From NCBI GenBank assembly GCA_965262715.1, contig OZ253553.1:1568001-1632000 (forward strand): a stretch of DNA of 64,000 nucleotides, written 5' to 3'. Position 1 is the first letter of the stretch, and the number at the start of each line of letters is the position of its first letter. The notes below the pieces were generated by a model. It searched no databases, had not been told where the DNA came from, and worked only from the letters and a program-made list of their open reading frames with translations. Of the stretch, positions 31,113 to 53,219 are shown piece by piece. The stretch comes from Bdellovibrionales bacterium (GTDB taxonomy: Bacteria; Bdellovibrionota; Bdellovibrionia; Bdellovibrionales; JAUICD01). Made by a program: the position numbers and the translations under genes.

Positions 31113-31270
31113 TTTCACTCAAAATGAATTGGCCTCTCGAGGCGAGCCTCTGGCCATTTTCTGGCAATGATTCCAACAGTTTTCACTGTCGGTAAAAGAA
31201 TCATCGCCTAGAAAATCTATTCATTTTGAGTAAGGAGACTCTCCTTGTTTCTTAAAACAATGTTAAGGAA
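31113..31270 (+). repeat. Structured repeat family E, copy
   Basis: tttcactcaaaatgaat...gcctctcgaggcgagcctctggcc...attcattttgagtaa plus tail ...tgttaagg. Confidence 0.85.
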
Positions 31271-31360
31271 ACCATTTTTCAATCACCTTAATGATCTGAG
31301 ATGAATTCTATAAAATTTCCTACTATCTTTTGGTGTTGACTTTGTGCTACCTTCAGTTAA

Positions 31361-31497
31361 ATTAAGGAGTCTCCTTACTAAAATGCATGGCTTTCTAGGC
31401 AATGACCTACTTGCCAAACGGCGTGAAGCCAGTTTGGGGACAATGCCAGAAAGTGACCAGAGGCTCGCCTCGAGAGGTCAGATGCATTTTAATGAGA
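31361..31497 (-). repeat. Structured repeat family E, inverted copy
   Basis: Reverse complement reads cattaaaatgcatctgacctctcgaggcgagcctctggtca...atgcattttagtaaggagac. Confidence 0.85.
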
Positions 31498-31536
31498 CAA
31501 AGACCAGTTTATTTTAAGTGAGATAAGTACTACGTA

Positions 31537-31995
31537 ATGGATAAAATTTTTATTGCTGCAGATCATGCAGGTTTTAACCTTAAAGAAAAAATAAAAACAA
31601 ATATAGGTCAAACTTTGAGCCATATAAGTTTAATTGATTTAGGTGTTCATCTTTCTAATGGAAAACTTCAAAAAGTTGATTATCCAGATTATGCTTCCTT
31701 AGTTGCTCAAAAAGTCAATAGAAAAGAAGGGATGGGTCTCCTTATCTGTGGATCAGGTCAAGGAATGTGTATGAGAGCTAATAAATACCCTTATGTGAGA
31801 GCTGCACTCTGCTGGGACATACCCTCCACCATACTGGCAAGAGAGCATAATAATGCTAATATTTTATGTCTTGGAGCTAGATTATTACCATTAACTTTAG
31901 TTGATCAAATTATAAAAACTTTCTTTGAAACCTCATTTGATGAAAAATCAAGGCATCAAAAACGTGTTGAAAAAATCTCTCAAGGAATATCATAA
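31537..31995 (+). CDS. rpiB: Ribose-5-phosphate isomerase B
   Basis: ADHAG, DYPD, CGSGQGM, ANK, REHNNANIL, RHQKRV motifs. Confidence 0.95.
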   Translation: MDKIFIAADHAGFNLKEKIKTNIGQTLSHISLIDLGVHLSNGKLQKVDYPDYASLVAQKVNRKEGMGLLICGSGQGMCMRANKYPYVRAALCWDIPSTILAREHNNANILCLGARLLPLTLVDQIIKTFFETSFDEKSRHQKRVEKISQGIS

Positions 31996-32012
31996 CTTAG
32001 AATATTTTCTAT

Positions 32013-32090
32013 CCGGGATCTGTCAAACTGGCATTCAGGTATCAGTTCCCGGGAACTGATTGCCCATTTACCAGTCTGCCCGATTGCCAG
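32013..32090. repeat. GC-rich short-unit repeat (family C)
   Basis: ccggg/ctggca/ttgcc units with internal palindrome atcagttcccgggaactgat; between convergent genes. Confidence 0.6.
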
Positions 32091-32156
32091 AAGTTTATAA
32101 GTGTTTTATTAACTCTAAAATAATAAAGCAATAAGATATCTCTTCTTTTTAACTTA

Positions 32157-32480
32157 CTAATGAACTTCGTCACTATCACTTTCTTCAAGGGATTTTTGGA
32201 ATTCCTTAGGGGATAAATAGGGAAAAGTTTTTTCTCTTAGATACTCTCTTGAAAGACCGATACCTTCAAGATAGAGTAATGTATTCCTCATGTTATTTAC
32301 AAACTCTCTCCTAGCTTCTTCACTTGTAAAAAGACGATTTATACTCCTTAATTCATGTCGAAATATGTTTTCTGCTGTGTCTTCAACTTCAATCCTTTCT
32401 CCTTGGTGAAGAAGATATGTGAAACAACCCCTTGTACTTTCAGTCGCTTTTGCTGAAAGCTTAGAAGTATCTGCTTGCAA
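32157..32480 (-). CDS. Hypothetical protein or gene fragment
   Basis: Protein-like composition; TTG start uncertain. Confidence 0.4.
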   Translation of the reverse strand: MQADTSKLSAKATESTRGCFTYLLHQGERIEVEDTAENIFRHELRSINRLFTSEEARREFVNNMRNTLLYLEGIGLSREYLREKTFPYLSPKEFQKSLEESDSDEVH

Positions 32481-50332: not shown

Positions 50333-50555
50333 AATTTGTCCAAAATGACTATTATAATAATCATTAACATATTTAATGACTATTATTCTATACATTATTT
50401 CAACATTTTTATTTACTTTTGTCAAGATAAAATCAATAAATTTGTGACAATTAAGACCAAATATATTTGCTCCAAAGGATGGATAGTGAGTACTTATATA
50501 GAGATTGCATGCTTATTATCGATCACTTAACATCACGGTAAAAATATAAAATAGG

Positions 50556-51254
50556 CTAAAAAGTGGTTGCTCTTGAAGAATAACAATTCCCAGCAAGTGG
50601 AATACCACCTTGAACTTCATGAAAAGAGATCGGTATTGAAGCTTTGCCGTCATTAGCAACTACATGAAAATGCAAGTGTGGGAATATAGTATATCCCACC
50701 ATTCCGCTATATGCTACTAGTTGTCCCTGAATGACTTTTTCCCCAAGCTCAACGACAATCCCGTCTTTTTTAATATGTGCATATACAGCTTTGGTGCCAT
50801 CTTCATGCTCAATTTCTAAGTAATTATTGGACCTAATGCTAAATCCATCATTCTTATCAATAACTGTGGAGACAATGCCATTGCGAGCTGATAATATTTC
50901 ACTTCCAATAGGCATCCAAAAATCCCAACTATACTCATAAAAGCTTCTATGAGTCGAAATACTTCGATTTCCCTGAATAACACACCATTTAAGACCCATT
51001 TTCCATGGAAGACTATATGGAGAATCCGCCTGATTAGGATACAAAATAGTGTTTCTTGGACCAGTGAAAGCCATGATTGAAATAACAGTTGTCAACAGTA
51101 TAGCAGCAAGGACCCACCTATTTTTTCTTATTGGTATCCAAATTGTACTACTAAGTTGCTTTAAACCAAATACCTTTGCAATAATCATTATCAAAAAAAT
51201 AAAAGTTAAAAATATTATTACAATAGTTACCAATGCACCTAATATCATTAACAT
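50556..51254 (-). CDS. M23 family metallopeptidase, membrane-anchored
   Basis: H....WDF, YAH, SGMVG...PHLHF motifs. Confidence 0.85.
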   Translation of the reverse strand: MLMILGALVTIVIIFLTFIFLIMIIAKVFGLKQLSSTIWIPIRKNRWVLAAILLTTVISIMAFTGPRNTILYPNQADSPYSLPWKMGLKWCVIQGNRSISTHRSFYEYSWDFWMPIGSEILSARNGIVSTVIDKNDGFSIRSNNYLEIEHEDGTKAVYAHIKKDGIVVELGEKVIQGQLVAYSGMVGYTIFPHLHFHVVANDGKASIPISFHEVQGGIPLAGNCYSSRATTF

Positions 51255-51335
51255 TCCCCACAGTTACTAATTTATAAAAAATCAGAAAGAGTACTTTAAA
51301 TATAGTATTTGTTATGTTAATATTGAATAATAATC

Positions 51336-52088
51336 ATGGCAAATCCAAATCGAGTTTTTCTTTCTGCAAAGTGGAGTCATCTTATATTATGTAATTATCC
51401 TGTGGATGATGTTATCCTTAAACCTTATCTTCCAATGGGTTGCAAGTTAGATTATTTTGAAAATAAGGCTTTTGTCAGCCTAGTGGCTTTTCAGTTTTTA
51501 AACACTAATGTATTTGGGTTTAAATGGCCAGGGCTCACTTGTTTTTTTGAAGTCAATTTAAGATTCTATATCAAATTTGGAAATCAACGAGGGGTTTGTT
51601 TTATTCGTGAGTATGTTCCTTCATATATTATTGTTGGAGTTGCCCGAATGATTTATAATGAGCCCTATAAATATGCGCCTATCTCTGGTACAATCAATAA
51701 AACCAAAGAACAAATAAATGCTTCATATCAACTCACTTCTAATGGCAAGTCCATGTTATTAGATATCACTGCAAAAAACTCCTCTCACTTGCCTTTGCCA
51801 ACTTCTATGGAACATTTTTTTAAGGAACATGAACTAGGAGTAGGAAGATCTCGAGCAGGAGAAACTCTTACATATAAAGTCAGCCACCCCCATTGGAAGA
51901 TTTATCCCATCGTTAGTGCAAAAGTCAAAGTGGCTTGGAAAATCTTTGGACCTCAATTTGGTTTTTTAAGCCAACAAGAACCTCACTCGATTATTTTTGC
52001 AAAAGGATCAAATATTGAGGTCTTTAATGCAGATAAACACTTCATATCCGAGATAAATAAAGATAAAGAAATCAATACAGTCTATTGA
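51336..52088 (+). CDS. DUF2071/YqjF-family protein
   Basis: W..L..NY.V, VSLVAF, F.EVNLRFY, RGV.F, V.HP.W motifs. Confidence 0.75.
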   Translation: MANPNRVFLSAKWSHLILCNYPVDDVILKPYLPMGCKLDYFENKAFVSLVAFQFLNTNVFGFKWPGLTCFFEVNLRFYIKFGNQRGVCFIREYVPSYIIVGVARMIYNEPYKYAPISGTINKTKEQINASYQLTSNGKSMLLDITAKNSSHLPLPTSMEHFFKEHELGVGRSRAGETLTYKVSHPHWKIYPIVSAKVKVAWKIFGPQFGFLSQQEPHSIIFAKGSNIEVFNADKHFISEINKDKEINTVY

Positions 52089-52216
52089 AAAATAACGAAA
52101 TCAATAAAGTTTGTGCATTTTCTCATCAAACACCAAAAACTGTATAATAACTAGAAGCGGTCTCAAAAATAAAAGTTTAATAAATATTGCCAGAAATTCA
52201 TAACTTTATCTAACTA

Positions 52217-53026
52217 TTTTCACTAAAATGCATCTCGCCTCTCGAGGCTAGCCTCTGGCGACTTTCTGGTAGTCAGCTCAGGCGGTTCACATCGTCAGCA
52301 AATAGCTGACTACCTAGAAAGCCTGATGCATTTTAGTAAACGAGATACTCCTCATTATTTAACATCATGTTAAGGGAATCGTGCTGTTTCAGTAAAAGTC
52401 TATGAACGTTTGTACCTATTACCTCTAATTTCTTATATAAAAGGGCTGTCTTCCTCAAAATGAACCTGCTTTTTTTTCACTAAAATGCATCTCGCCTCTC
52501 GAGGCTAGCCTCTGGCGACTTTCTGGTAGTCAGCTCAGGCGGTTCACATCGTCAGCAAATAGCTGACTACCTAGAAAGCCTGATGCATTTTAGTAAACGA
52601 GATACTCCTCATTATTTAACATCATGTTAAGGGAATCGTGCTGTTTCAGTAAAAGTCTATGAACGTTTGTACCTATTACCTCTAATTTCTTATATAAAAG
52701 GGCTGTCTTCCTCAAAATGAACCTGCTTTTTTTTCACTAAAATGCATCTCGCCTCTCGAGGCTAGCCTCTGGCGACTTTCTGGTAGTCAGCTCAGGCGGT
52801 TCACATCGTCAGCAAATAGCTGACTACCTAGAAAGCCTGATGCATTTTAGTAAACGAGATACTCCTCATTATTTAACATCATGTTAAGGGAATCGTGCTG
52901 TTTCAGTAAAAGTCTATGAACGTTTGTACCTATTACCTCTAATTTCTTATATAAAAGGGCTGTCTTTCTCAAAATGAACCTGCTTTTTTTTCACTAAAAT
53001 GCATCTCGCCTCTCGAGGCTAGCCTC
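52217..53026 (+). repeat. Tandem array: 3 x 257 bp plus partial fourth unit, each carrying a family E element
   Basis: cactaaaatgcatc recurs at 52221, 52478, 52735 and 52992; units identical except one C/T seen in unit 3. Confidence 0.95.
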
Positions 53027-53073
53027 GAGAGGCTTGTCTTCTATTCATTTTGAGTAAAACAGAATGAAGGAAA

Positions 53074-53219
53074 TTTTCTTTAACATGATGTAAAAGAATG
53101 AAGACATTCTCGTTACTTAAAATAAATGGATTTTTGAGGCAGTCAGCATTTTATTGACGGTGTTAACCGTCAAGCTGGCTGCCCAAAAACAACCAGAGGT
53201 TGATTTATTTTGAGTGAAA
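53074..53219 (-). repeat. Structured repeat family E, inverted divergent copy
   Basis: Reverse complement tttcactcaaaataaat-caacctctggttg-tttttgggcagccagc-ttgacggttaacaccgtcaa-...-gctgactgcctcaaaaa-...atttattttaagtaa, plus tail acatcatgttaa. Confidence 0.8.

Follow-up and report, generated by a model that had tools for sequence, protein, structure and literature searches.

REP, ERIC, BOX, RPE, and bcr1 are common structured small repeats, and the movement of most of them is unexplained. Here we describe a further repeat, family E, which is non-coding, 148 nt long, and folds into four helices with a three-way junction. It was encountered in a window (the whole stretch of DNA that was analysed, 64,000 nt) which corresponds to bases 1,568,001–1,632,000 of the single-contig genome of a Bdellovibrionales bacterium (contig OZ253553.1; 2,939,090 bp, 33.6% G+C). 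E is a structured, non-autonomous intergenic repeat of the bcr1/REP-like kind and shows a reproducible link to an S23p-like gene. Its closest described relative in kind is bcr1 from the Bacillus cereus group, which is about 155 bp long and intergenic, keeps its fold by compensatory changes, and has no transposase of its own (PMC3184786). The same review also describes bcr1 as mobile-like and reports flanking 5-bp direct repeats, transcription, and a fold at the RNA level (PMC3184786). E resembles bcr1 in its similar size, its dispersed, intergenic, and strain-variable distribution, its multi-stem fold with compensatory changes, and the lack of an own transposase. Unlike bcr1, it has no 5-bp flanking repeats, its stems are symmetrically Watson–Crick, and it forms long head-to-tail arrays among its 455 matches; it belongs to an unrelated lineage and shares no sequence similarity with bcr1.

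Other described systems share part of these properties. REPs are 20–40 nt long, REPINs are inverted doublets, and RAYT (TnpA-REP) is their partner (PMC3116915, PMC8266576, PMC2817692). E is likewise high in copy number, extragenic, palindromic, capable of putative DNA hairpins, free of target duplications, and restricted to a lineage, but it has 148 nt and four helices, its close pairs are mostly direct (199 of 223), and no RAYT/Y1 gene is found in the genome of a sister species from the same genus (G001), which also carries E. Y1 being absent from G001 equally separates E from IS200/IS605-derived elements, and subterminal hairpins like those of the resident element of this type do not occur in E. 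[quoted passage not shown] E matches them in all of these respects and is also hairpin-capable; it differs by the absence of a target-site duplication and of a parent insertion sequence, by covarying internal helices, and by a tail that lies outside the arms. BOX from Streptococcus pneumoniae and the BIMEs of E. coli are modular or mosaic repeats, the latter with alternating orientation (PMC3184786, PMC2817692). E also forms mosaics with other modules, varies in the copy number of sub-modules, and occurs in arrays, but these are direct and have a defined three-way-junction core. Finally, the intervening sequence in the 23S rRNA of Coxiella bears an open reading frame (ORF) for S23p (PMC4990558). 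Like E, it is selfish, stem-forming, and associated with an S23p-family gene, but E is not inserted in rRNA, most of its copies are gene-less, and its link to S23p is one of adjacency only.

The fold of E is supported by strong covariation. From the fetched loci and the window, 233 full-length copies were obtained and were reduced by k-mer similarity to 121. Nine copies longer than about 173 nt were dropped and one tail-less copy from the window was added, which resulted in an alignment of 113 copies (75 from this genome, 38 from G001). RNAalifold predicted 38 pairs on this alignment, and 32 of them show compensatory changes on both sides. The stem cells of the alignment are paired in 94.3% of the cases, compared to 76.6% after shuffling (none of 500 shuffles reached the observed value) and to 32–45% when the partners were slid. 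Changes on both sides were found in 840 cells, compared to 271 in the shuffled and 34–94 in the slid controls. Helix P1 has 11 bp and closes the junction. P2, a hairpin of 5 bp, has the near-invariant apex CCTCTGG. P3 has 15 bp with a bulged T and is joined to the P4 hairpin by an AAAATG internal loop. On the 3' side, the fold is followed by an unpaired, purine-rich GGAGA stretch and then by the conserved tail ACAnnATGTTAAGGAAA. A fifth helix (GGAGA...CTCC) was considered and is unsupported, as two-sided covariation is absent. A search of the whole window against Rfam gave no match at gathering thresholds; at E ≤ 10, there were only chance-level matches far below the gathering scores.

An earlier note, prepared from the letters of the window alone, had described a dispersed element with the helices P1 to P4, a bulged T in P3, and a conserved ATGTTAAGG tail, had stated that pairing is kept while the sequence diverges, and had recognized no known family. 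All of these components are present in the alignment, the covariation is far above that of the controls, and the Rfam result agrees with the last point. The observation is thus real and statistically strong, while its details are confirmed in part. One detail that has to be corrected concerns a 14-nt insert in the P2 loop (TCTCGAGGC.AGCCTC). According to the earlier note, P2 usually encloses TCTC-GAGGC.AGCCTC, but the insert is common within the window and a minority form overall: it is present in 15 of the 75 non-redundant rows from this genome, in none of the 38 from G001, and in 87 of 308 full copies when arrays are included. Across the 75 rows from this genome, 17–24 variants of each helix were counted. 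The variant carried in one helix is only weakly tied to those in the others (adjusted mutual information 0.05–0.24), which indicates that helices are reshuffled among copies.

Several properties bear on whether the fold acts in DNA or in RNA. On its own strand, a functional RNA would normally tolerate many G·U but few A·C pairs. Watson–Crick pairs make up 3962 of the 4276 stem cells of family E, besides 72 G·T and 104 A·C cells, with a wobble excess on neither strand. Since neither strand carries the G·U pattern, the deviating pairs match a random decay of individual copies. For four copies from the window, either strand folds as well as the other when modelled as single-stranded DNA (ssDNA), with z-scores from −5.4 to −10.3. 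Between gene pairs on the same strand, E has the orientation of the genes in 94 copies and the opposite one in 141. No promoter-like site was found inside the arrayed units. A role of the tail as ribosome-binding site and start of the next gene was rejected, the median distance from the tail to a co-oriented gene being 497 nt. In a test for replication-strand bias, the GC-skew curve proved to be scrambled. The Watson–Crick symmetry, the mixed orientation, and the clustering of copies by genome (see below) argue for a selfish element at the DNA level rather than for an RNA gene. The earlier note had offered two options, a structured RNA or an ssDNA hairpin substrate; the conserved structure stands, and of the two options the hairpin in DNA is the better fit. 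The fold is most plausibly selected when a copy propagates as ssDNA.

In this genome, an nhmmer profile returned 455 matches to family E, of which 308 are full length; together, they make up 2.1% of the genome. The genome is 78% coding, and 17 of the 455 matches lie mostly within crude ORFs. E occupies 216 intergenic regions, 122 of which hold a single copy. The 147 partial copies are 5'-truncated in 93 cases, 3'-truncated in 44, and truncated at both ends in 10. E was detected by BLAST in 3 of 41 related genomes. With the covariance model, three of the five genomes from the family contained it, as did 3 of 151 from the order; it was not found in the 146 other genomes of the order. The three E-bearing genomes are the one analysed here, G001, and G004, while the remaining two of the family, G002 and G003, are free of E. 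G001 has at least 150 matches, and its genes are 67–73% identical to those of this genome. In G004, E is restricted to three contigs, which are 85–92% identical to and syntenic with this genome. These contigs (C11, C4, and C1; loci L166–L169) are unlike the rest of the genus to which G004 belongs. Judged by their sequence, they probably derive from a close relative of the organism studied here and were mis-binned into G004, in which case family E is so far known from one genus. On a tree, copies segregate by genome (3 label changes compared to about 32 with shuffled labels), which shows expansion or homogenization inside each genome. A literature search for repeats of Bdellovibrionota symbionts or of this lineage revealed nothing relevant.

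Copies of E differ in their presence between related sites. One copy lies within another dispersed repeat for which there are nine empty paralogues. Relative to these, the additional DNA of the filled site extends from TTTTCAC to AAGGGAATCGT(C), and a clear duplication is absent. On a contig from a close relative, a copy of E is found in an A-run, and there is none at the syntenic site of this genome. The relative's insert extends 16 nt past the tail. A near-identical extension (2 mismatches) follows the E tails at two other loci of this genome, one of which is a nine-unit array; the shared extension implies that 3' flanking DNA travels with E. In a 4.7-kb contig from another public run, which is about 95% identical, 161 letters replace the 440 nt that hold two E copies of the window, A and B (coordinates below). 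Long E variants with cargo were also sought, but the regular-expression search gave mostly chance matches.

Adjacent copies of E mostly lie head to tail. Neighbouring pairs that are at most 300 nt apart are direct in 199 of 223 cases. Among 109 adjacent full-length pairs, direct orientation was found for 59 with at least 90% identity and for 41 with greater divergence, the other 9 being convergent; of the adjacent pairs below 90% identity, 41 of 50 are thus direct. An example is found in the window. Tandem Repeats Finder reports 3.2 units of 257 bp with 99% match at 52217–53026, and three E copies form the unit cores: 52215–52378(+) with a covariance model score of 134.6 bits, 52472–52635(+) with 136.1 bits, and 52729–52892(+) with 136.1 bits. 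Another array in the genome contains about 15 of these 257-bp units. The spacer of the unit, at 52379–52471(+), is part of another repeat, "H", and ends with the head of an additional E-like copy. Unit positions 182–248 also occur alone, without E, at at least seven genome sites with 93–99% identity. Repeat H, the host of E in the 257-bp unit, is found at window positions 52130–52216 and 52379–52471, at genome positions 11868–12001, and at eight other sites; nine of its paralogues have no E insert. Parts of E form minisatellites of their own: the 25-nt head is present in 15 tandem repeats and the 56-nt tail in 5 (genome positions 2908475–2908850 and 2498879–2499107). The 25-nt head repeats and the 14-nt insert had suggested that the P2 loop might be nicked or serve as a target, an idea which was dropped given that the 56-nt tail repeats exist too. 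As head and tail both expand, the expansions look like general slippage, and slippage or unequal recombination is indicated as the local amplifier.

A second multicopy component is linked to E. Genes of the PF05635 family (23S rRNA intervening-sequence protein, S23p/Avd-like, about 97 aa) number 19 in this genome, 14 in G001, and 19 on the contigs which belong to G004 itself. In this genome, 12 of the 19 are located within 400 nt of an E copy; the share among 2175 crude genes is 16% (binomial p = 5e-6). Seven are flanked by E on both sides, four of them in the arrangement E(+)-gene-E(−). In G001, each of the 14 is at most 400 nt away from an E match that scores 68 bits or more; nine are flanked on both sides, and an identical spacing of 155–156 nt recurs at four loci. 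Fusions of E tails with the leader of the PF05635 gene, or inside its ORF, occur at varying points. Example loci are genome positions 2438271–2438513 and 923197–923379 and, in G001, L176–L189. The 19 genes on the contigs of G004 itself are not accompanied by E, which shows that the gene multiplies independently of E. The link may reflect co-mobilization, an insertion preference, or a functional partnership. The leader of the PF05635 gene has runs of 7–8-nt repeats containing CCGG and a hairpin that would mask the ribosome-binding site.

The genomes were searched for enzymes which might mobilize E. Matches to Y1 (PF01797) number one in this genome, none in G001, none in G004, and three in the E-free G002. 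The lone Y1 gene of this genome is an ordinary IS200-like one, with its own TTCA-loop hairpins that are unlike P2–P4. No E abuts it; among the matches listed, the nearest E is about 1.8 kb away. The earlier note had proposed a RAYT/IS200-type HUH enzyme as the mobilizing partner. This finds no support in a sister genome with at least 150 copies and no Y1, nor in the isolated Y1 gene here, so that the interpretation of the earlier note is half right: a structure under selection, at the level of DNA hairpins, without the proposed HUH partner. A TnpB domain gave a single weak match, inside a 1343-aa ORF. IS110-type genes are absent from both E-rich genomes. Reverse transcriptase genes (PF00078) number three in this genome and none in G001, and SINE-like or DGR-like retro-mobilization thus does not fit the sister genome. 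The search for Y2/IS91 gave no match, but a control search was also silent in all 14 reference genomes, and this result is hence uninformative. Insertion sequences are numerous in the genome (24 of the IS30, 33 of the IS4-like, 14 of the IS5, 11 of the IS256, and 10 of the IS3 type). Genes of the Transposase_31/YhgA-like type number 19 here, 16 in G001, and 16 in the E-free G003. They were considered as a partner and rejected, being no nearer to E than other genes (median 3993 vs. 3611 nt) and multicopy in G003, where E is missing. In the window, an IS30-family transposase gene (HTH_38 and rve domains) is located at 60578–61531(−). It is 91% identical to another copy, and its ends are unrelated to E, so that the earlier statement that no cognate transposase is in the window was right in substance.

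With moderate confidence, we consider E to be a non-autonomous selfish DNA element which is recognized and copied as folded ssDNA by an enzyme. Selection would then act on the fold when a copy propagates and not on each resident copy. Dispersal would proceed by copy-in without target duplication and would often halt short of the 5' end; local arrays would expand via unequal recombination or slippage, and helix variants would be shuffled between copies by recombination or gene conversion. A number of observations weigh against this. A target-site duplication was not found in 108 de-duplicated isolated copies (k = 3–6, all offsets), the observed maxima being equal to the permuted ones, and because of this the exact ends of E are not defined. 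Flanks are common to distant copies, upstream for 147 and downstream for 173 of 253 full copies. E is hence often one module within larger mosaic repeats, and it may be these that spread by recombination, in which case E would not be an element of its own. Clean empty sites were sought in the close relative and did not emerge: the syntenic comparisons are messy, other intergenic regions differ wholesale, and there are no clean junctions. The kinship of copies inflates the shuffle-based covariation statistics, a weakness from which the slid controls are free. Among the families searched (Y1, IS110, reverse transcriptase, and insertion sequences with matching ends), no mobilizing enzyme was found, and E-like ends occur on none of the IS30, IS4-like, IS5, IS256, IS3, single IS200, and Transposase_31 flanks. 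In another reading, E has no dedicated mobility at all and is a host cis-element or neutral palindrome-rich module spread only by tandem duplication, ectopic recombination, and gene conversion. The dominance of direct arrays, the partial tandem expansions of head and tail, the often co-repeated flanks, and the reshuffled helix variants would fit such an origin. Its difficulty lies in the 216 separate intergenic regions that are occupied (by one copy each in 122 cases), in the copy inside a repeat with nine empty paralogues, and in a fold kept across 17–24 variants per helix, which needs structural selection. We thus consider it quite improbable that E spreads without a dedicated mechanism.

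The linkage to PF05635 raises the possibility that E and the S23p/Avd-like gene, from a four-helix-bundle family, are a two-part selfish system, in which the protein would bind the folded strand of E and further its copying while E-gene-E composites would be autonomous. The linkage is tight (E lies within 400 nt of 12 of the 19 genes in this genome and of all 14 in G001), E tails are fused to the gene leader or ORF, and the gene is present in both E-carrying genomes. We nevertheless regard this arrangement as unlikely, since G004 has 19 such genes on contigs without E, and since E is so dense, especially in G001, that the linkage could partly be due to insertion preference or hitch-hiking. The PF05635 family is also not known to have a catalytic activity, which counts against it as well. 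A specific version, in which the S23p/Avd-like protein would read the three-way junction on ssDNA, recruit host replication or repair enzymes, and copy E from its 3' side, is speculative and in our view clearly unlikely. If true, it would give a role to the widespread S23p/Avd-like family and explain the origin of gene-bearing rRNA intervening sequences. An RNA-based explanation would make E a set of multicopy structured small RNA genes or transcribed cis-regulatory RNA modules, with the fold selected as RNA. It could draw on the multi-helix covariation, on the conserved unpaired motifs, and on an identity of E between the two species (75–82%) that exceeds that of flanking genes (67–73%); transcription has also been reported for similar repeats, bcr1 among them (PMC3184786). 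The G·U pairs (72, vs. 104 A·C in 4276 cells) are in excess on neither strand, an orientation rule with respect to genes is absent, arrayed units have no promoter-like sites, and copies cluster by genome, vary between close relatives, and are partial in 147 of 455 cases, all of which makes an RNA function as the selected trait distinctly unlikely. A REP/REPIN-like or IS200/IS605-derived hairpin, moved in trans by a Y1 HUH transposase, would share with E the bulged-T hairpins, the lack of a target duplication, and the ssDNA-like fold of both strands, and one Y1 gene does exist here. That gene is an ordinary IS200-like one with TTCA-loop hairpins and no abutting E; Y1 is missing from the E-rich G001 and from G004 while the E-free G002 has three; close pairs are direct and not inverted doublets; and E is four to six times as long as a REP. 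Mobilization by Y1 is therefore very unlikely. The genome is rich in insertion sequences and the P1 arms resemble long inverted ends, as would be expected if E were a classic MITE, that is, derived by deletion from a DDE insertion sequence whose transposase moves it in trans. This origin is highly improbable, given that no insertion-sequence terminus is like the ends of E, that a target duplication is absent, that the conserved 3' tail is outside the inverted arms, and that the internal helices covary, which is needless for a transposase that binds ends alone. For the mobility of such repeats, the family provides a clean case: hundreds of copies in two complete genomes, a very well-supported fold, the usual partners (Y1 HUH, IS110, reverse transcriptase, matching insertion sequence) missing from one of them, and the reproducible link to a small gene family. 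What copies folded repeats that lack a transposase becomes testable with E. E further accounts for a large part of the repeats in these genomes and of the instability of their arrays, and it can mislead RNA-gene finders.

Within the window, a scan with the covariance model built from the 113 copies scored six strong copies, a truncated copy, and a decayed one. Copy A (31110–31271(+), 139.5 bits, model positions 1–148) is full length, has the 14-nt P2-loop insert, and begins 2 nt past the stop codon of the ORF at 27392–31108. It is convergent with copy B (31341–31500(−), 75 bits), in which P1–P4 are intact and the 3' tail is missing. The three array copies given above are followed by a truncated and rearranged copy (52960–53099(+), 31.5 bits), which consists of the head as far as the P2 loop and then an inverted head; a scan for terminator-like structures revealed a perfect 26-bp palindrome within it, at 53008–53033. 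Copy D (53075–53222(−)) is full length, represents the common form without the P2 insert, and has the top score in the window (153.4 bits). The copies which the earlier note had placed at 31113, 31361–31497, 52217/52474/52731, 52988–53057, and 53074–53219 are all real, and each was scored by the model. It had missed the decayed copy at 57146–57282(+) (31.2 bits, E = 2.9e-4), in which only the 3' part and the tail are still recognizable. Its "long variant" of E at 6036–6277(−), in turn, has no model match at E ≤ 1. According to the BLAST coverage profile, this region is a mosaic of two other repeat families with about 30 and about 12 copies, and comparison with the S23p loci identified one of them as the reversed leader of the S23p-like gene element. 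The mosaic is bounded by an E-like head of about 12 nt and by the 3' strand of P1, to which its likeness to E is limited. Directly beside it, at 5900–5940, is a remnant of an IS30 end (CGTAAGTGCAACT).

A scan of the window for tRNA and tmRNA genes found none. The ORF at 61833–63998(−), which runs off the window, contains 11.6 tandem units of 153 bp (51 aa) at 61867–63649, and similar repeat proteins are encoded at several genome sites. Another internal repeat, 1.8 units of 258 bp at 39785–40256, is located in the ORF at 39474–41441, which is adjoined by a similar ORF at 37321–39282. The 236-aa ORF at 25990–26700(+) belongs to a five-member paralogue family and has no Pfam match. An ankyrin-repeat protein is encoded at 53593–54153(−); ankyrin genes are multicopy in the genome, which suggests a host-associated lifestyle. 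Finally, the region 34700–35500 shows a high summed contig depth in four public runs, with many loose ends, and is probably another multicopy repeat.

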